A stretch of DNA of 36,114 nt from Candidatus Heimdallarchaeota archaeon (GTDB lineage Archaea > Asgardarchaeota > Heimdallarchaeia > Heimdallarchaeales > Heimdallarchaeaceae). Under the pieces are notes generated by a model. The model was not told the origin of the DNA and searched no databases. It saw nothing but the letters and a program-made list of their open reading frames with translations. The stretch lies in contig JAEOTE010000065.1 of the NCBI GenBank assembly GCA_016839945.1, positions 1 through 36,114 on the forward strand. The letters are read 5' to 3'. This document shows positions 3,209 to 28,251 of the stretch, piece by piece. The translations under genes were made by a program, and so were the position numbers. Each line of letters starts with the position of its first letter. Position 1 is the first letter of the stretch.

Positions 3209-4057
3209 TTATTTTTGGCATTTTGGACAGAAAAAGATTCTTCTTCCTTTATTCTTAATAGCTACTATCTCAGTTTCACATACCTGACATAGTTGATCTT
3301 GTTTCCCATAAACCTTGTGCCATTGTTGAGCAGAACCCTCCTCTCTAAATGGTGTTTGAAAAGGTTGAATGTTGAAAGAACTACCTTGACTCTCTAAAGC
3401 TCTATGTAGAGTGTCTGAAATTGCATGTCCTAGTTTTTTCCTTTCGTTGGGACTTAGGTTTTCAACTAATTTTGTAGGATTAATTTTAGCTTGAAAAAGA
3501 GCTTCTGATCGATAAATATTACCAATTCCAGCTACAAGCTTCTGATCTAACAAAATATCTCCTATCTCCCTGTTAATGTAATTTGATCTCTTTAGTTCTG
3601 TTAAGAAAGTATCAATAGGAAAAGGTAAAGCAAGACCATCTATACCTATTTTTCTAATCGGATCATGTCTTAGAATAGTTTCATATGATTCAAAAACTCT
3701 AAATTGACCAAAATTTCTGACATCATCAAAAACCACTTTTTGTTTCAATTCATGAAACTTAATTATAACTTTAGCATGAGATGGGTTTTCTTCATTTTCT
3801 TCCACGAAAATCCATTTGCCAGACATTCCTAAATGGTTTAATATAACTTTCTCGAAATTGAAAATCCACATCAAGAATTTTCCTTTTCTCTCAATAGTTT
3901 TGATTTTTTTGTCTTCAAAAATATCTAGTTCTTTTTGTTTAAAACGGTATTTTTTATATTTTTGAGATAAATTAGTAAATTGTATTTGTTTTATCTTTTT
4001 ATTAAAAATAGCCTGCAATGAAAGCCTTGTACATTCTACTTCGGGTCCTTCAGGCAT
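3209..4057 (-). CDS. mutM: Fpg/Nei family DNA glycosylase/AP lyase
   Basis: N-terminal catalytic PEGPEV, ERKGKFL, HLGMSG, DVRNFG, H2TH motif LLDQKLVAGIGNIYRSEALF, C-terminal zinc finger CQVC...CPKCQ. Confidence 0.92.
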   Translation of the reverse strand: MPEGPEVECTRLSLQAIFNKKIKQIQFTNLSQKYKKYRFKQKELDIFEDKKIKTIERKGKFLMWIFNFEKVILNHLGMSGKWIFVEENEENPSHAKVIIKFHELKQKVVFDDVRNFGQFRVFESYETILRHDPIRKIGIDGLALPFPIDTFLTELKRSNYINREIGDILLDQKLVAGIGNIYRSEALFQAKINPTKLVENLSPNERKKLGHAISDTLHRALESQGSSFNIQPFQTPFREEGSAQQWHKVYGKQDQLCQVCETEIVAIKNKGRRIFFCPKCQK

Positions 4058-11214: not shown

Positions 11215-12891
11215 GTGAAAAGCAAAATGAAAAAAATCAATAAGCAATTGTCTATTATATGGACTTCTTTTGCTATCTTAGTACTACTATTTGGTTTTAC
11301 TCCAGTTTTTGCATACGATAATCCAGTAGTTACTATAGCAGAAATTCAAGGAGATTCATGGTATACTCCATATGCTTGGGATTATGTTGAAACATGGGGT
11401 ATTGTGACAGCAGATTACCAATGGGAAGGTAAACGTGGATTCTTCCTTCAAGACCCAATCGAAGATGGAAATCCTGCAACTTCTGAAGGGATTTTTGTTT
11501 ATGAAAGATATGATTTCGATGTCAATGTTGGAGATGAGATTAAAATCGTGGCTAGAGCTAGAGAGTATTACAGTTTAACTCAACTTGATAGAGTACAAAG
11601 TGTAGAAATACTTTCTACAGGTAATGTTCTTCCTGCACCAGTTGAACTTAATCCTCCATTTGATGACGATGAATCTGATGTTTACTACGAAAAATTAGAA
11701 GGTATGCTAGTTTCTGTTGAGAAACTAAGAGCTATATCTGGTACTAATGTCTATGGTGAATTTGCTGGTGTTGTAGCTAACTTAGGCATTCATCGTGTCT
11801 TTGAATCTGATGAAGACAAAGGTATGATAATCTTTGGCGATGAAGGCGGTGGATGTTGGGTTAATGTTAAGAGTGGTTATCTAGTTAAGAACTTGGTTGG
11901 TCCTCTTGACTATACATATGATGAATACAAAATCTTACCTTCTGCAGATAATCCCCCAACTGTATGTCCTGATTTGTTCTGGGATGACTATCTCGGATGG
12001 GGATCAATGTTTAGAGGTTTAACAGTTGCTACATACAATATGTTCAATCTCTTCGATGACTATGATCTTGAAGATGAATTAGCTAAACATGCATTAGCTA
12101 TCCATGATTACTTAAGAGAACCTGATCTTATTGCAGTGCAAGAAGTTGAGAAAATTGAATTACTTGAACAATTAGCACTTACTGCACCTATTGAAACTAA
12201 CTATGGCGCTGTCTTAATAGAAGGATACGACGCTCGAGGAATAGATATTGGTTTACTTTACAATATGGATAGAGTGGAAATCTTATCAGCTGAAATAAGA
12301 CAAACAACCACTGATCTTGATGATGGATATGGACCAGGAGATGATATGCTCTTCTCAAGACCTCCATTAGTGATCCATATGAATATTCTTTGGAAAGGAG
12401 AAGCGTATACTGATATGTGGGTGATTGTAAACCACTTTAAATCAAAGAGTGTATATGCTCCTTACTATGCTGATACAACTCCACGTCGTATCGAACAAGC
12501 TGAATGGGTTAGTGAACTGGTTGATGAAATTCAAGTAGAAGATGAAGATGCATACGTTATAGTGCTTGGAGATCTTAACGATTTCGAGTATAGTGAACCT
12601 ATACAAGTACTTACAGATGGTGGACTCATTAATCTCATGAATAAAATCCATAAGAGAACCAGATATACTTACATATATCGAGGATATTCACAAGTCTTAG
12701 ATCATATACTAATTACTCCATCTCTTGCAAAATTATTCCGTAAAATCAGGATAGTTCACTCTAGTATTGATTGGCCATTCCCATTATTTGGTGATGATAC
12801 AACAACAGGCTTGTGCAGTTCAGATCATGACATAGTTTTAGCTAGCTTTAGAATTTTTCCATATAAAATGAAGTGGAGATGGTTCTGTTAA
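11215..12891 (+). CDS. Secreted extracellular nuclease (ExeM/NucH/YhcR-like: OB-fold plus EEP domain)
   Basis: Signal peptide ending VFA; TIAEIQG, GFFLQD..DGNPATSEGIFV (OB-fold); EEP motifs ATYNMFN, AVQEVE, NHFKSK, LGDLND, LDHIL, SDHD; start may be ATG 11227. Confidence 0.9.
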   Translation: MKSKMKKINKQLSIIWTSFAILVLLFGFTPVFAYDNPVVTIAEIQGDSWYTPYAWDYVETWGIVTADYQWEGKRGFFLQDPIEDGNPATSEGIFVYERYDFDVNVGDEIKIVARAREYYSLTQLDRVQSVEILSTGNVLPAPVELNPPFDDDESDVYYEKLEGMLVSVEKLRAISGTNVYGEFAGVVANLGIHRVFESDEDKGMIIFGDEGGGCWVNVKSGYLVKNLVGPLDYTYDEYKILPSADNPPTVCPDLFWDDYLGWGSMFRGLTVATYNMFNLFDDYDLEDELAKHALAIHDYLREPDLIAVQEVEKIELLEQLALTAPIETNYGAVLIEGYDARGIDIGLLYNMDRVEILSAEIRQTTTDLDDGYGPGDDMLFSRPPLVIHMNILWKGEAYTDMWVIVNHFKSKSVYAPYYADTTPRRIEQAEWVSELVDEIQVEDEDAYVIVLGDLNDFEYSEPIQVLTDGGLINLMNKIHKRTRYTYIYRGYSQVLDHILITPSLAKLFRKIRIVHSSIDWPFPLFGDDTTTGLCSSDHDIVLASFRIFPYKMKWRWFC

Positions 12892-16215: not shown

Positions 16216-18459
16216 GTGAAACAAATGTCATTTATAGAACGTTTACAATTAACACCCGAGGAGAAACAAATTTATCAACTTCTCCTTGGCAGCGGACAAC
16301 TAACAGCTTCTGAAGTAGCTCAATTCAGTAACTTACATTATTCTAATGTTAAAACAGCATTGGATTCTTTAATCAATAAAGGCGCAGTGGGTGCATCTGA
16401 GGGATACATCAATAAGTTCTACGTAAAAATCCCACTTGGATATTTAGCTACTACTAGCGATAAATTGAATGAAGATATCAATCAAAACATAAGTGAGACA
16501 AAATCCTTTATTGAAAACAAAAAGAATACTTTTGAAAATCTTAGAGGATCATTAACCTCACAATTATCAGAATCTGTTGGTAGGAAAAAAGCAGAAATAG
16601 ATCAGAAGTTAAATCAAACTTCATCACAATTTCAGACTTCAGCACAGCAAAAGAAAGAAAACCTTTCGCAAAAGTCATCTGAACTAGCTTCTAAATGGTC
16701 TTCTATTAATAACAACCAAAAAACGTCCATACAATCCTCTGTAAAAGAGGTTTTAGGCTCTAATGTAGAAAACCTCAATCAAGCTAAAACCTCCATTAAT
16801 ACCATCGTAGAAAATGTAAAGCAGAAAAACATTGAATCAATTGCTAATTCTAATGCTGAAATTGAACAAAGTGTAGCTCAATCTATTGAAAAAATCCAAA
16901 CTACTGCTCAAGCTTTAGGTCCTAAAGTAGATGAGCTTCGACAATCTTTGACAACTGATTTAGAAGGAATAGTTGAAACATTCAAACAAAGCACAGATAC
17001 AACAAAATTAGATGTTCGAGCATTTAATAGAACTCAGGCAGATAAGTATCTTGGTTATTCGGAAGAAACCACAAGGAAAACAGGAGAAGCAATAGATGGA
17101 ATTTCTGAATCAGCGACAAGTTCACTATCAGAACTAAATAGTTCTCTCGAATTAGTTTTAGATAGAAAAGTAGAAGATTTATCCCTTCAAGTACAAGAAG
17201 CATTATCTGCTTTGAATGAAAAAGTAACTGGTATCAAAGAGAGTTTGAAAGAAGAATTATTACAACAAAAGAATGTAACAATTTCTAATACAATATCACA
17301 GATTAAAGAATCTATGGCTCTTAAATATACAGACCTTCAAAATAATGAACAAACTCAAAGGAACAATATGATTAGTGAAAGAGATATTTTCACACAAAAA
17401 TTGGAAGCTCATTATACTGAAACTTTGGATAATTACAATCAGAATATTAATACAATTAATGAGAATACTAAAACAAGATTAAATACTTTTGCAGAAGGTT
17501 TAGCCACTCAATTCAATGAATTATCTGCTAATACAGAAAACAACTTGAATTTACATTTACAAGCCTTCAAGGATCTATCGCAGCAACTAAATACAACTAC
17601 AGGTGAAGAATTGGCTATTGGTTCAGATAGATTGAAAGAGAAATGGACTGATTTAATAGAAAAAGCAGAAACTTTGATACAAGAAAGTGAAGCAAAAATC
17701 AATCAAAATTATCAAGAAGTAAATAATCTTATTCAAACAACTAAAGATACGATATCTGAAGAATTAGATAATTACTTGCAACAAACATTGGATTCAACAA
17801 TAGCAGTAACAAATGAAGTTCTTAATGTGTCCAAAACAGGTATTGATGAAGGAAAGGAGTTACTATCTGGAAACTTAAACAATGAAATTGATGAATCAGT
17901 AAAATACTTCGAAGATACAGGAAGGAAATTTAACGATACTGCAAACTATCTAATTAGCGCTACTATGAAGCTAAAAAATGATTTTAGAGATTTAGAAGCT
18001 ACATCAAAAGAAATTCAACTTCCACCAATCCAAACTACTTCAATAGTAGGACTTGATGCTGTTTTGGATCACATGGCAAGAATAATAGGCAGTACAAAAA
18101 GCAATGTAACTATCCTTTCGCCAAAACATGAATATATACCTCTTGAAGCTGTAAAAGGTTTACAAAGAGCTAATATTACACTGGTAACTACATTAGATGA
18201 AGAAATTAACAAAGATTGGATAGATAATGCGGCTTCTACAGCTGTAGATGTAAACGTAGAAATAAGGAAACTTAAGGGAGTAGATATACCTCAATTTATT
18301 GGAGTAGAGAGAGATCAAGAAGAGGTTTTAATAGCTGCTCAAGATGAAGCAACAGGAGAAGTAGTTGGAATTTTGAGTCAATCTACATATTTTGCAAAGC
18401 TAGCATCTTTTGTTATTATATCCCATCATGCTAAAGGTAATTCAACAAAAATCAGGTAA
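16216..18459 (+). CDS. TrmB-family wHTH protein with very long helical/coiled-coil insertion and C-terminal TrmB effector-binding (PLD-like) domain
   Basis: N-terminal LTPEEKQIYQLLL.SGQLTASEVA...ALDSLINKGAV; about 530 aa of Q/N/E/S/T/K-rich, Pro/Gly-poor helical sequence; C-terminal VGLDAVLDHMARII.STKSNVTILSP...ERDQEEVLIA; start GTG 16216 or ATG 16225. Confidence 0.8.
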   Translation: MKQMSFIERLQLTPEEKQIYQLLLGSGQLTASEVAQFSNLHYSNVKTALDSLINKGAVGASEGYINKFYVKIPLGYLATTSDKLNEDINQNISETKSFIENKKNTFENLRGSLTSQLSESVGRKKAEIDQKLNQTSSQFQTSAQQKKENLSQKSSELASKWSSINNNQKTSIQSSVKEVLGSNVENLNQAKTSINTIVENVKQKNIESIANSNAEIEQSVAQSIEKIQTTAQALGPKVDELRQSLTTDLEGIVETFKQSTDTTKLDVRAFNRTQADKYLGYSEETTRKTGEAIDGISESATSSLSELNSSLELVLDRKVEDLSLQVQEALSALNEKVTGIKESLKEELLQQKNVTISNTISQIKESMALKYTDLQNNEQTQRNNMISERDIFTQKLEAHYTETLDNYNQNINTINENTKTRLNTFAEGLATQFNELSANTENNLNLHLQAFKDLSQQLNTTTGEELAIGSDRLKEKWTDLIEKAETLIQESEAKINQNYQEVNNLIQTTKDTISEELDNYLQQTLDSTIAVTNEVLNVSKTGIDEGKELLSGNLNNEIDESVKYFEDTGRKFNDTANYLISATMKLKNDFRDLEATSKEIQLPPIQTTSIVGLDAVLDHMARIIGSTKSNVTILSPKHEYIPLEAVKGLQRANITLVTTLDEEINKDWIDNAASTAVDVNVEIRKLKGVDIPQFIGVERDQEEVLIAAQDEATGEVVGILSQSTYFAKLASFVIISHHAKGNSTKIR

Positions 18460-18892: not shown

Positions 18893-21829
18893 ATGGAAGT
18901 ATTAACTTGCGTTTATCTAAAAACTCTTTCACAAGTTGATGGTGAGAATCCTCGCTCAACTCTTCTAATTGATGTAGATGGACAAAACTACAACTTAAAC
19001 CTCTGGAATCCTTGGAACGAAATAGTTGACTATCTTCAACCATATACAACTCTAAAATTATATAGTGTAAAAAAAATCTCTGGAAAAGATTCAACATATT
19101 TCTCAACAGACTCAAACACAATCGTTGTTGCGGATCCTGATATTCTTATAAATGCGACAGCAATTAATAATGTTTCATACTGCTCCCGAAGTTATTATTT
19201 GAGTGAAATGATTGGTGAATCTATTTCTCCTTATATTGCAGTAAGAGGTTCTATTATTCACGATTGTTTAAGTTATGCCATCATGAACAATACAAAACCT
19301 TCAGAGAATTTATCGCAAGTTTTAGATATTTTTTCTCTTCAGTATGAGAATTTTGGTTACTCCAAAGAAGATGTGCATCAAGAATTAAGAGAAATGGCAG
19401 AATGTCTTGATCCTTTTGTAGAAAACCTATCAGGTGACTCTCTTCCAGAAACACTATTTTTGTCACCTGATTTTGGAATAAGAGGAAGAATTGATCTTTT
19501 GAATAATGGTCACATCTTTGAATTGAAAACAGGTAAAATCTCTGAAAATAATGACGCACGACCTTCAGATATAAGGCAAGTTGCATTATACCGGTATGGT
19601 CTAGGAGATTATACTGCAGATAAGGATCCTGAAAAAGGTTCTATCCTCTATGTAGGTACTAACAAGGTTGTAAGAAAAATAGTAGAACCAAACTGGAAGA
19701 TGCTAAAATATGCTATGGGCAAAAGGAACATCGCATATATGGTTTCATATCAAGGTTATATTCCTCTGATACTTCCAGAATCTGCAAGGAGAAAATGCCA
19801 GAAATGTTCAATAAAGCATTTCTGTTATATTGTGTGCGCAGGTTTAAATCAACAACGAAACTGTTCAGAATGCCCACATAATGAACTCTGTAAACAGCAA
19901 GCTCTTCCAGAATCATATCGAGAATATTTCAACCGTTTTTCAAGATGGATAAGAGAAGAGAAAAATGAATCAAGAAGAAATTTCTCTGATTTATGGAATT
20001 TGAATGTTGATCAAAGGGTCGCAAAAGGAAAAACGATTCAAAATATGATTCTTGAAAATGAACAAAGTGAAAATGGAAACACTAAATTACTTTTCTCTTG
20101 CGATAACAAATCAGAACTTCGCGAAGGAGATATTGTTGTTTTAAGTGATGGCAAGGTTCTTCACGGACCTATAGCTACAGGTGTAGTTTCATCTGTATCA
20201 AATACATCAATTGAAGTAGACACTAGAGCAATTGGAGACAAAATGTCTGTGTTAGACTTGTATTCAATAGATGTAGGTTTTCGAAGACAACAGAGAGGTT
20301 TGTTTAATCTTGTTTTCAAGAAGAAGGATTTTAGAGACATTATTGTTGAAGAAAAACCTTCTCTTATTGATGAAGTTGAGGGAGATTTTATTCAAAACAA
20401 CCAAACTCAAAACAAATCTATAGAGAAAATATTAGGCACCCAAAATTATTGTCTCATTCAAGGACCTGCTGGAACAGGTAAAACTCACGTTATTGCAAAA
20501 GTAGCCATTATACTAGCTGAAAAAGGGGAAAAAGTTTTACTAACAGCATTTACTAATCGAGCAGTTGATAATATCTGTTTATATCTATTAAGAAACAATT
20601 ATCACAAATTCATTAGATTAGGATCTTCTCATTCTATTCTCAGAGAAATAAGAGATTATACACTTAGTGAATATAAAGAAAGAAACGAAGAAAAATCCAC
20701 ACAAAGTATTTTAGAGGATTTTCCAATAATTGTAGCTACTACTTCGACAATTTCAAATCCTGTATTCGAGAAAATAGGAACTCAAACAATTATAATTGAT
20801 GAAGCAAGTCAAATGACAGAACCAACAGTATTATCAGCTCTAATTGAAGGTGATAGGTTTATACTAGTTGGTGATCACAAGCAACTTCCACCAGTAGTGC
20901 AAAGTTCTAAGGTATCCGAAGAAGGGATGAGTCTCTCTCTCTTTGAGAGATTAGCAAAAGCTAATTCTAGTAACGTTCATCTCTTACAACAACAATTTAG
21001 AATGAATGAAAAACTAATAGATTACTCAAACAAACAATTTTATGATAAAAAACTAAGCTCCTTCAATGATGAAATAAGAAAACAAAATCTATCTAAATTA
21101 TCTAATTATATTGGAGATTATAATGAGATTCAACACAGTAGTATTTATGATCCAGACTATCCTTTGATTTTTGTACCTGTGAAAGGTAATTTTCAACATA
21201 AGAAAAAGATTAACGAAGAGGAAGCTAAAATTGTTGGTCAAATTGTCTCAAACTTTCTTAAATTAGGATTGAATATCGAACAATTAGGAGTTATTTGCCC
21301 CTATAGAGGTCAAGTCAGTGAAATTAGACGCTTAGTACATCCTACAGTAACTGTTGATACTGTTGATCGTTTTCAAGGAAGTGATCGTGAAGTCATTATA
21401 CTTTCTTTAGTCGAATCTCAAATTCATGGAAGTAAAGGTTTTGCTGATGAACGTAGACTTAATGTTGCTTTAACTCGAGCTAAGAAAAAACTAATTGTTG
21501 TTGGAGATCCTCAAGGAAAACAAGACGTATTAGAAAATTATATCAAATATCTAAATGAAAATGCTAAACAGATTGATGCTATAGAACCAAAATCCCCAAC
21601 TTCAATTGAACAAGATTTGATAATTGTAGCAGATAATATTAATAAAACTGCAAGGATACTAAAAGATGCTACTGCCAAGTGCTTAATCTGTTTTGAGCAA
21701 ATTCAAGATGATGCAATTGAATGTCCTAACTGTAAATCTCTATTTCATATTGATCATATCATTAAATGGATTAAAAATTATGATCGTTGCCCATATTGTA
21801 AAACTAAACTGTCGGCATTTCTTAAATAG
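18893..21829 (+). CDS. dna2: Dna2-like nuclease-helicase (PD-(D/E)XK Fe-S nuclease plus SF1 helicase) with C-terminal RING-variant finger
   Basis: Nuclease: YCSR, GSIIH, GRID, ELKTG, QVALY, CQKCSIKHFC; helicase: QGPAGTGKT, TAFTNRAVDN, IIDEASQ, VGDHKQLPP, QFRMN, TVDRFQG, RLNVALTRAK; C-terminal CLIC...CPNC...HIDH...W...CPYC. Confidence 0.88.
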   Translation: MEVLTCVYLKTLSQVDGENPRSTLLIDVDGQNYNLNLWNPWNEIVDYLQPYTTLKLYSVKKISGKDSTYFSTDSNTIVVADPDILINATAINNVSYCSRSYYLSEMIGESISPYIAVRGSIIHDCLSYAIMNNTKPSENLSQVLDIFSLQYENFGYSKEDVHQELREMAECLDPFVENLSGDSLPETLFLSPDFGIRGRIDLLNNGHIFELKTGKISENNDARPSDIRQVALYRYGLGDYTADKDPEKGSILYVGTNKVVRKIVEPNWKMLKYAMGKRNIAYMVSYQGYIPLILPESARRKCQKCSIKHFCYIVCAGLNQQRNCSECPHNELCKQQALPESYREYFNRFSRWIREEKNESRRNFSDLWNLNVDQRVAKGKTIQNMILENEQSENGNTKLLFSCDNKSELREGDIVVLSDGKVLHGPIATGVVSSVSNTSIEVDTRAIGDKMSVLDLYSIDVGFRRQQRGLFNLVFKKKDFRDIIVEEKPSLIDEVEGDFIQNNQTQNKSIEKILGTQNYCLIQGPAGTGKTHVIAKVAIILAEKGEKVLLTAFTNRAVDNICLYLLRNNYHKFIRLGSSHSILREIRDYTLSEYKERNEEKSTQSILEDFPIIVATTSTISNPVFEKIGTQTIIIDEASQMTEPTVLSALIEGDRFILVGDHKQLPPVVQSSKVSEEGMSLSLFERLAKANSSNVHLLQQQFRMNEKLIDYSNKQFYDKKLSSFNDEIRKQNLSKLSNYIGDYNEIQHSSIYDPDYPLIFVPVKGNFQHKKKINEEEAKIVGQIVSNFLKLGLNIEQLGVICPYRGQVSEIRRLVHPTVTVDTVDRFQGSDREVIILSLVESQIHGSKGFADERRLNVALTRAKKKLIVVGDPQGKQDVLENYIKYLNENAKQIDAIEPKSPTSIEQDLIIVADNINKTARILKDATAKCLICFEQIQDDAIECPNCKSLFHIDHIIKWIKNYDRCPYCKTKLSAFLK

Positions 21830-26811: not shown

Positions 26812-28251
26812 ATGAGTAGTAACGAAGAATACACTTTAGCTTTGACCAGCTGCGGAATAGACGTTGGTACAACAACATCACACCTGATCTTTTCTAAACT
26901 CAAATTAGAAAAAATCTATACTCCTAGAGGAGTAAAATTTGAGGTTACAGAGAGAGAAATATTGTATAAGGGTCAGATTATCTTAACTCCTTTGATAGAC
27001 GGTCAGAATATAGATTACTTAAAACTCGTAGAATTTCTTAAGGAGGAATATATACTAGCTAAGATGTCAATTGATGATATCGACACTGGTGCAGTTATTA
27101 TAACAGGTGAAAGTGCAAAAAAAGAAAATGCAGAAGAATTGGTTAAATCATTAGCTCATAAGGCAGGTAAATTTGTTTGTGCAGCAGCAGGACCGAATTT
27201 TGAATCAGTTATTGCAGCGATGGGTTCTGGAGCCGTTCAATATTCAAAAAAATCACAAAAAAAAGTAATCAATATTGATATTGGTGGTGGCACTTCAAAT
27301 ATAGCAATTATAGAAAATGGAGAAATAATTGAAGCTGCTTGTGTTAATGTTGGAGGAAGGTTGTTAGCTTTTGATAAAAATAACAAAATTGTAAGAATCG
27401 AATATCCAATCAGATATTTAGAAGAAAAGTTAGGAATAAATTTCCAATATGGATTAGAAATCACAGAGAATCAAAAAAAGGAAATTGCAAAAATCCTAGC
27501 GGAAAGCTTATTTGAAGTCTTAGATCAGAAAATTGTTTCAGAAATTGCAAAAAAACTCTTGATGACAAATGAAATAGACCACAAAGAAGCAATAGATGAA
27601 TATATCTTTTCGGGAGGAGTCGCTGAATATATTTACAACAAAACTAAACAAGAATATGGTGATTTAGGTAAACATCTTGGCGAAGAAATTAGAAGAATAA
27701 TAAATAAAAAGAAACTCATAATACAAGAGCCCAAGGAATTAATACGTGCAACTGTAATTGGTGCAGGTCAATACACTCTCCAAGTTTCAGGAGTAACAAC
27801 TCATATCTCTGATGAAGATGTGTTGCCTATCTATAACATCCCTGTTCTAGAACCAAAAATCAACAATAGAGAAATAACAGAAGAAAACATTAAGCGAGCA
27901 ATAATCAAAAGTTTTAGTCTTTTTGACATTGATGAAGGCGAAGCTATTGTTGCTCTTTCATTCAAAGGAGCAATTGGTGGTTCTTATGCGGGATTAACAA
28001 CGTTTGCTAAAGGAGTGGTCGGCGCAATACCCAACACAATTAAAAAAGAAAAACCAATCATAATGGTTTTTGATAGAGATGTGGGTAATTCAGTAGGAAA
28101 TGTAATGAAAAGAGAAACCGATGCAACCAAGAATATCATATCTATAGATGAAATAATTGTTGAAGAAGGAGACTTCATAGATATAGATGTACCTAAAGCA
28201 GGAGGACAAGTTGTTCCTGTAGTTGTTAAATCATTAGTTTTTTCGAATTAG
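26812..28251 (+). CDS. eutA: EutA-like reactivating factor for adenosylcobalamin-dependent enzyme (ASKHA ATPase)
   Basis: GIDVGTTTSHLIFS, TGAVIITGESAKKENA, FVCAAAGPNFES, IDIGGGTSN, FSGGVA, IRATVIGAG, SIDEI...GDFID, VVPVVVKSL. Confidence 0.9.
   Translation: MSSNEEYTLALTSCGIDVGTTTSHLIFSKLKLEKIYTPRGVKFEVTEREILYKGQIILTPLIDGQNIDYLKLVEFLKEEYILAKMSIDDIDTGAVIITGESAKKENAEELVKSLAHKAGKFVCAAAGPNFESVIAAMGSGAVQYSKKSQKKVINIDIGGGTSNIAIIENGEIIEAACVNVGGRLLAFDKNNKIVRIEYPIRYLEEKLGINFQYGLEITENQKKEIAKILAESLFEVLDQKIVSEIAKKLLMTNEIDHKEAIDEYIFSGGVAEYIYNKTKQEYGDLGKHLGEEIRRIINKKKLIIQEPKELIRATVIGAGQYTLQVSGVTTHISDEDVLPIYNIPVLEPKINNREITEENIKRAIIKSFSLFDIDEGEAIVALSFKGAIGGSYAGLTTFAKGVVGAIPNTIKKEKPIIMVFDRDVGNSVGNVMKRETDATKNIISIDEIIVEEGDFIDIDVPKAGGQVVPVVVKSLVFSN

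Follow-up and report, generated by a model that had tools for sequence, protein, structure and literature searches.

Why would a DNA-processing enzyme of an archaeon end in a finger of the kind found on ubiquitin ligases? This question is raised by a gene on a 36,114-nucleotide contig (JAEOTE010000065.1, the whole of which is termed here the window) from a Candidatus Heimdallarchaeota archaeon (GenBank assembly GCA_016839945.1), which encodes a Dna2 nuclease-helicase with a C-terminal RING-type tail. The Dna2-RING fusion is real and old. Judging from sequence and by analogy, this tail probably acts, on balance, as a ubiquitin E3 ligase, and the fusion suggests that ubiquitin tagging is tied to DNA processing in these close relatives of eukaryotes.

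Domain architecture and the RING-type tail

The gene is a single open reading frame (ORF) with no internal stops, and the features of its product, with positions in the window and in amino acids (aa), are as follows.

18893..21829, + strand: Dna2 nuclease-helicase with C-terminal RING, 978 aa, protein P0001 (ORF, Pfam, model)
18893..19132, + strand: all-beta N-terminal domain, aa 1-80, in the position of the Dna2 OB domain (model)
19133..19972, + strand: PD-(D/E)XK nuclease domain, aa 81-360 (Pfam, invariant columns, mouse Dna2 alignment)
19835..19891, + strand: second four-Cys cluster, C315, C324, C327 and C333 (C-x8-C-x2-C-x5-C), 3' of the Fe-S motif (alignment)
20390..21517, + strand: SF1B (Upf1-like) helicase core, aa 500-875 (Pfam AAA_11/AAA_12)
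21518..21676, + strand: variable linker, aa 876-928, with a predicted strand at 909-913 (model; ratio of non-synonymous to synonymous substitution rates, dN/dS, 0.28)
21680..21802, + strand: RING finger, C4-H-H-C2, aa 930-969 (pattern, Pfam, fold matches)

Pfam recognizes Dna2 (aa 30-180, above cut-off), PDDEXK_1 (87-333), AAA_11 and AAA_12 within this protein. Its full-length model, for which the mean predicted local distance difference test score (pLDDT) is 87 and the predicted template modelling score (pTM) is 0.88, matches mouse Dna2 (5ean) by Foldseek with a template modelling score (TM) of 0.74 over 1035 columns (E 3e-54, 24% identity), the next-best families, Ighmbp2 and Upf1, scoring <=0.50. 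Invariant across 33 homologues are D201, E210 and K212 of the nuclease, C97, C302, C305 and C311 of the Fe-S site, and helicase motifs I-VI, all of which are present (Walker A at aa 524-531, nt 20462; Walker B, DEASQ, at aa 636, nt 20798; motif VI at aa 855, nt 21455). By its nuclease, Fe-S staple, SF1B motifs and overall fold, the enzyme part is Dna2, as a first-pass annotation of this DNA had recognized from its complete nuclease and SF1 helicase motifs. Because the model opens with a strand at residue 2, the protein appears to lack the helix alpha1 through which mouse Dna2 binds RPA. The second four-Cys cluster, around which model confidence is low (pLDDT ~62), is a putative second metal site, either Fe-S or zinc; the window's family and a sister family retain it, as do some prokaryotic Dna2 proteins that have no RING, but mouse Dna2 does not have it and the Hodarchaeales-type clade has lost it.

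The tail itself reads C-x2-C-x10-C-x2-C-x4-H-x2-H-x3-W-x6-C-P-x-C from nt 21680, with Trp at 959, precisely as first annotated; its predicted zinc ligands are C930, C933, C944, C947, H952, H955, C966 and C969. A loose RING pattern arises by chance in none of 100,000 shuffles of the Dna2 protein and is likewise absent when 2,473 ORFs of the genome are shuffled 20 times. In isolation, the tail scores 28.3 bits against Pfam zf-RING_2 (gathering cut-off 27.3), and weakly against PHD and DZR, both below cut-off. A model of the tail (core pLDDT 83-90), in which Trp959 sits on the RING helix, matches RNF165 by Foldseek at a root-mean-square deviation of 1.8 A; in a wide fold search (VIA), RING and U-box domains fill the top ranks, with modest Z-scores of 5-7 over ~50 aligned residues, and no PHD domain occurs among the top 50 fold matches. 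Modelling thus makes a RING, which had also been the initial call, a better assignment than a PHD or zinc ribbon. Eight ligands and the Trp are invariant in 51 tail sequences, a profile of which matches RING-H2 E3s with E 5e-10. All 69 distinct tails have the ligand order C4-H-H-C2, which is neither that of canonical RING-H2 fingers (C3H2C3) nor that of RING-variant fingers (C4HC3, Listerin/FANCL type), the sixth ligand being His.

Conservation and distribution of the fusion

The exact RING pattern occurs on 69 distinct orthologous tails of Heimdallarchaeia Dna2, and two closed chromosomes (CP084166.1 and CP070760.1) also carry the fusion. The closest named relatives of this Dna2 belong to Heimdallarchaeaceae and then to Hodarchaeales, and every complete homologue within these two groups has the finger; halophile homologues stop ~30 residues past helicase motif VI without one. 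Across 201 genomes of the phylum, full-length Dna2 turned up in no class but the window's, where it was found in 32 of the 44 other genomes and in 21/21 of the family's genomes. All intact full-length copies inspected in the class end in the finger (in one case with the Trp helix deleted). A wide homology search for Dna2, which covered 1.84 billion representatives and of which the best 150 matches were inspected, revealed a RING on 15 further prokaryotic Dna2 proteins, and none on eukaryote-like or named bacterial Dna2 among those 150. A search with the tail alone returned 4 close relatives only, and an ESM Atlas search gave no usable match.

The RING is under strong purifying selection, tighter than that upon the catalytic core: pooled over 11 close pairs, which are not fully independent, dN/dS is 0.04 for the RING, 0.085 and 0.098 for the catalytic core, and 0.28 for the linker.

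Several individual homologues deserve mention. One Dna2 orthologue (L038, G166:C90:10059-12581) is broken by an in-frame TAG after ~750 aa, and so is either a pseudogene or a sequencing error. In a small lineage (L032, P0034, P0135) the Trp-bearing part of the RING helix has been lost, with all eight ligands kept. Two RING-bearing matches are labelled 'Thorarchaeota' and 'Promethearchaeota' at NCBI, probably in error, because both proteins nest within the Hodarchaeales-type clade and one falls in a 90% cluster with a Heimdallarchaeota protein.

Kinship with the RINGs of Asgard ubiquitin operons

To which RINGs, then, is this tail most closely related? At seven of eight E2 loci from other lineages, a gene for an ~80-aa RING protein lies directly upstream of the genes for ubiquitin, E2 and E1, and 6/7 of these small operon RINGs have the same C4-H-H-C2 ligands as the Dna2 tail. 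HHalign comparison of one operon RING with the Dna2 RING alignment gives a probability of 98.6% at 40% identity, and the tail shows both the operon-family pattern, C-x2-C-x(9-13)-CPxC-x4-H-x2-H-x3-W-x6-C-x2-C, and profile similarity to that family. On sequence grounds, therefore, the Dna2 tail belongs to the RING family whose small members stand in the E3 position of the Asgard operon, a kinship that constitutes the strongest, albeit indirect, evidence for ligase function. Because the operon RINGs share both ligands and profile with the tail, the His sixth ligand is no oddity but the normal Asgard form; the first-pass annotation had read this ligand correctly, but had taken it for a deviation. 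Likewise, searches by profile and by structure upheld its call of a RING (zf-RING_2 at 28.3 bits, RNF165 at 1.8 A), but not the resemblance that it saw to the RING variants of Listerin/Ltn1 and FANCL: the closest relatives are the small RINGs of Asgard operons, and WDR24 shares the spacing. Orthology with Listerin or FANCL is accordingly rejected.

The Asgard operon RINGs (L139-L145) correspond to the archaeal srfp of ubiquitin-E1-E2-RING operons and, as noted, share their ligands with the Dna2 tail; unlike srfp, the Dna2 RING is fused to a 900-aa DNA enzyme and stands outside the operon. The E3 of Ca. Caldiarchaeum subterraneum, with which the tail was compared by description, is described as C3H2C3 with shifted ligands and is the only srfp-type protein with shown activity, which was obtained with a surrogate substrate (PMC5654768). 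As for the operons themselves, which come from seven Asgard genomes, two adjoin UEV and Vps4 genes; their small RINGs have a conserved G-x-W-x-W strand N-terminal to the finger; and the RING of L142 has Glu as its sixth ligand, with a second RING gene lying upstream.

The same family also occurs C-terminally on ~10 other, unrelated proteins of the genome, which include membrane proteins as well as a PCI-domain protein and a signal-peptidase fusion. Of 121 Asgard genomes, 89 contain matches to a profile of the genome's RINGs, with between 1 and 36 matches each, and 88 contain matches to an E2 query, so distributed that 88 genomes have both the RING family and E2, 32 have neither and one has the RING only, with the caveat that related genomes are not independent. 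Seven Asgard families wholly or nearly lack both (e.g., 0/17 and 0/5); ubiquitin has been reported to be lacking in Thorarchaeota (PMC9192718). The presence of one C4-H-H-C2 RING family on many proteins per Asgard genome, tracking E2, suggests that E3s expanded early on through domain fusion.

Ubiquitin partners and the E2-contact face

Would a ligase find partners here? Four matches to the E2 fold were found in this genome, as were genes for ubiquitin and E1-like proteins and for a JAMM protease, in keeping with the initial statement that Asgard archaea encode ubiquitin-E1-E2-RING systems. The E2 encoded at G000:C4:10258-10731 is UBE2D-like (E 1.5e-27), is 47-52% identical to the operon E2s, of which it is an orthologue, and keeps the catalytic Cys and the RING-binding loops (loop-4 PFKP and loop-7 W-x-PA); this E2 was found in 44/44 same-class genomes searched. 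Two ubiquitin loci were also observed: one (L098, G000 C69:24244-29998) with genes for E2, JAMM, a membrane RING, a ubiquitin-like protein and E1, and another (L100, G000 C129:1-6016) with genes for ubiquitin, E1, a UEV-type protein and Vps4. The E2 of the former, at C69:24244-24777, is the genome's second catalytic E2; in the latter, E1 lies at C129:308-1366 and the ubiquitin gene is truncated by the contig end at C129:1.

On the Dna2 side, the E2-face residues of the RING are I932, W959, P967 and K970, the last at the linchpin position. Among the RINGs of the window's clade, 39/39 have Ile, Val or Leu at C1+2, the Trp, Pro after C7, and Lys or Arg after C8. In the Caldiarchaeum srfp, mutation of I30, W58 or R69 impairs ubiquitylation (PMC5654768), and the aliphatic residue at C1+2, the Trp and the basic residue following C8 in the Dna2 RING are their positional equivalents.

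A proposed role for the tail

We propose that a chromosomal Heimdallarchaeia Dna2 may have acquired a RING of the Asgard ubiquitin system as its C-terminal tail. Mouse Dna2 feeds the ends of single-stranded DNA (ssDNA) into a tunnel in its nuclease, and its substrates are Okazaki flaps and DNA ends (PMC4716839). By extension from eukaryotic Dna2, the archaeal enzyme would thread 5' single-stranded flaps or ends through this tunnel during Okazaki-fragment maturation and end resection, while its tail, if it behaves as do the Caldiarchaeum srfp and eukaryotic RINGs, would dock a ubiquitin-charged UBE2D-like E2 via I932, W959, P967 and K970; the partner would most likely be the product of G000:C4:10258-10731. 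A tail that docks a charged E2 would make Dna2 its own substrate-finding E3. Two targets, both speculative and rated about equally, come to mind: (i) a protein sharing the ssDNA with Dna2, such as RPA, PCNA or a trapped protein; and (ii) Dna2 itself, for which ubiquitylation might serve as the turnover signal of a dangerous nuclease.

A more ambitious proposal, which we consider doubtful, is that Heimdallarchaeia Dna2 is a DNA-sensing E3, which upon engaging ssDNA flaps or ends ubiquitylates RPA, PCNA or trapped proteins, and that loss of the RING from a fusion of this kind might have given rise to eukaryotic Dna2. If true, DNA-damage signalling based on ubiquitin would be seen for the first time in a prokaryote. 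To our knowledge, archaeal RING ligases have no known physiological substrate or pathway outside the ubiquitin-ESCRT link. With the RING fixed on Dna2, there is a process to look at (flap processing and resection), a candidate E2 to use and a set of four residues to test; therefore the question of whether ubiquitin controlled genome maintenance before eukaryotes becomes directly testable.

Alternative explanations

What else might the tail do? An alternative that seems to us unlikely, yet that has to be taken seriously, is that the RING docks rather than catalyses, like the RINGs of Slx1, WDR24, WDR59 and MIOS, and that it binds a partner, possibly another RING protein of the genome, thereby activating or localising Dna2. 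Several observations lean this way and hence weigh against a ligase. Slx1, a nuclease whose C-terminal RING is needed for Slx4 binding (PMC4726241), is a precedent for a partner-binding RING, and it appears along with SEA/GATOR2 RINGs among the fold matches of the tail. Between human WDR24 and the Dna2 RING the alignment is gapless: ligands one to six are identical, and the spacing agrees as far as the Trp and C7-Pro; moreover, the genome's zinc-finger-plus-RING tandems match WDR24, WDR59 and MIOS along their whole length. In the yeast SEACAT (the GATOR2 equivalent), RINGs are structural joints for RING-RING dimerisation (PMC9646525). E2-face residues, too, drift in the Hodarchaeales-type clade, where Pro follows C7 in 0/28 tails and Gln occupies the linchpin position, and one small RING-Dna2 lineage has lost the Trp helix. 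Considerations of distribution also weigh against a ligase: Dna2 was not found in 12/44 same-class genomes, and so is not universal there; ~10 other, unrelated proteins of the genome bear this RING; the co-occurrence with E2 concerns the RING family rather than the Dna2 copy; and no ubiquitin-system genes were seen near Dna2 at the loci examined. With no ubiquitin genes seen nearby and the RING on so many other proteins, the ubiquitin-linked module that the first-pass annotation had envisaged is not a self-contained one. Against mere docking, the nearest family members are operon RINGs adjoining the genes for ubiquitin, E2 and E1; the RING family is missing wherever E2 is missing, save in one RING-only genome among the 121; and the window's clade keeps all four E2-face residues without exception. 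No Slx4-like or coatomer-like partner was identified in this analysis.

A quite improbable alternative is that the finger serves Dna2 itself, either as a zinc domain packed against the helicase, with a structural or DNA-binding role, or by binding ubiquitin or E2 non-catalytically for recruitment to ubiquitylated sites. Packing is suggested by the tail being more ordered in the full-length model than in isolation, with strands at 909-913, 921-923 and 972-977 (pLDDT 78-89). However, halophile, bacterial and eukaryote-like Dna2 proteins work without a finger, and the same module occurs on membrane proteins and on a signal peptidase, where DNA binding is implausible.

An assembly artefact, a concern raised at the outset, for which the 186 contigs of this assembly might speak, or a neutral recent fusion, is scarcely credible and is rejected, given the many orthologues that a survey for the fusion uncovered (69 distinct tails), the closed genomes CP084166.1 and CP070760.1, and the purifying selection (dN/dS 0.04).

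Evolutionary placement and comparison with known systems

Where does the fusion fall in Dna2 evolution? In a FastTree analysis of 167 Dna2 cores, all 36 RING-bearing proteins lie on one branch (support 0.82), which has a support of 68 in an IQ-TREE subset; a single gain of the RING within the class is thus plausible from these trees. A clade uniting RING-bearing with eukaryote-like Dna2 is not rejected in the IQ-TREE subset (p-AU, approximately unbiased test, 0.41), where the eukaryote-like group is defined only by its branch position and a single named member; neither tree placed RING-Dna2 relative to eukaryotic Dna2.

Compared with mouse DNA2 (PDB 5EAN/5EAW/5EAX; PMC4716839), the archaeal protein has the same order of OB, Fe-S nuclease and SF1B helicase domains and keeps the catalytic and Fe-S residues, but adds the C-terminal RING and the four-Cys cluster and apparently lacks the N-terminal RPA-binding helix. 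Asgard Dna2 homologues were already reported by Feng et al. (PMC12680538, Ext. Data Fig. 5b), according to whom eukaryotic Dna2 is related to some of them; the main text of that study speaks of neither RING nor ubiquitin. Dna2 is not mentioned in two Asgard structure surveys, and a literature search, whose coverage excluded most subscription papers, found no description of the fusion. As far as these searches reach, the Dna2-RING fusion is unpublished, and is a variant that combines Dna2, archaeal RING E3 and helicase-E3 fusion kinds.

Of helicase-E3 fusions, Rad5, HLTF and SHPRH join an SF2 ATPase to a RING. ZNFX1 joins an SF1 helicase, whose Upf1-like core is common to Dna2, to RZ and Miz-like E3 domains (10.1101/2025.10.14.682297). 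All of these resemble the Dna2 fusion in uniting nucleic-acid tracking and ubiquitin transfer on one polypeptide, but have a different E3 domain or helicase superfamily and no Dna2 nuclease, and are independent fusions.

Neighbouring genes and other observations

The Dna2 neighbourhood is a housekeeping one, with genes for the RFC large subunit, exosome components, a TrmB-HTH (helix-turn-helix) coiled-coil protein and ferredoxin, and the same arrangement occurs in the closed genome of Ca. Heimdallarchaeum aukensis. An anti-phage helicase-nuclease system (Mokosh, Hhe or Cas4-like) is rejected because PADLOC profile matches span the helicase or the nuclease part only and because of this housekeeping neighbourhood. 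Other genes of the window are as follows.

16216-18459, + strand: 747-aa protein with TrmB-type HTH and long helical repeat; upstream neighbour of Dna2, conserved across the family
3209-4057, - strand: Fpg/Nei DNA glycosylase, bacterial-type gene in this Asgard contig
11215-12891, + strand: ExeM/NucH-like nuclease, likewise bacterial-type
26812-28251, + strand: EutA-like protein, likewise bacterial-type

At one other locus (L138:14791-18084), genes for NurA and a DUF87 (HerA-like) protein lie 4-7 kb from a RING-Dna2 gene on the same contig, an association not seen at the other loci examined.

Zinc-finger-plus-RING tandems end six proteins (L091, L095, L094, L097, L093 and L096), the loci of which in G000 are as follows.

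C24:34080-36170: tandem protein
C47:1536-3317: tandem protein
C68:27222-28634: tandem protein
C73:4564-5511: tandem protein
C149:48003-49706: tandem protein
C170:1359-2747: tandem protein

A profile of these tandems matches the whole C-terminal zinc region of WDR24, WDR59, MIOS and IFT-A subunits with E ~1e-5 to 1e-4, so that, on this sequence similarity, the C-terminal RING of protocoatomer proteins may have its archaeal source in these tandems. A 696-aa protein (L091:2084-4171, - strand, G000 C24) has a PCI/winged-helix match along with its C-terminal RING, and RING-family matches in ~690-aa ORFs recur across the class.

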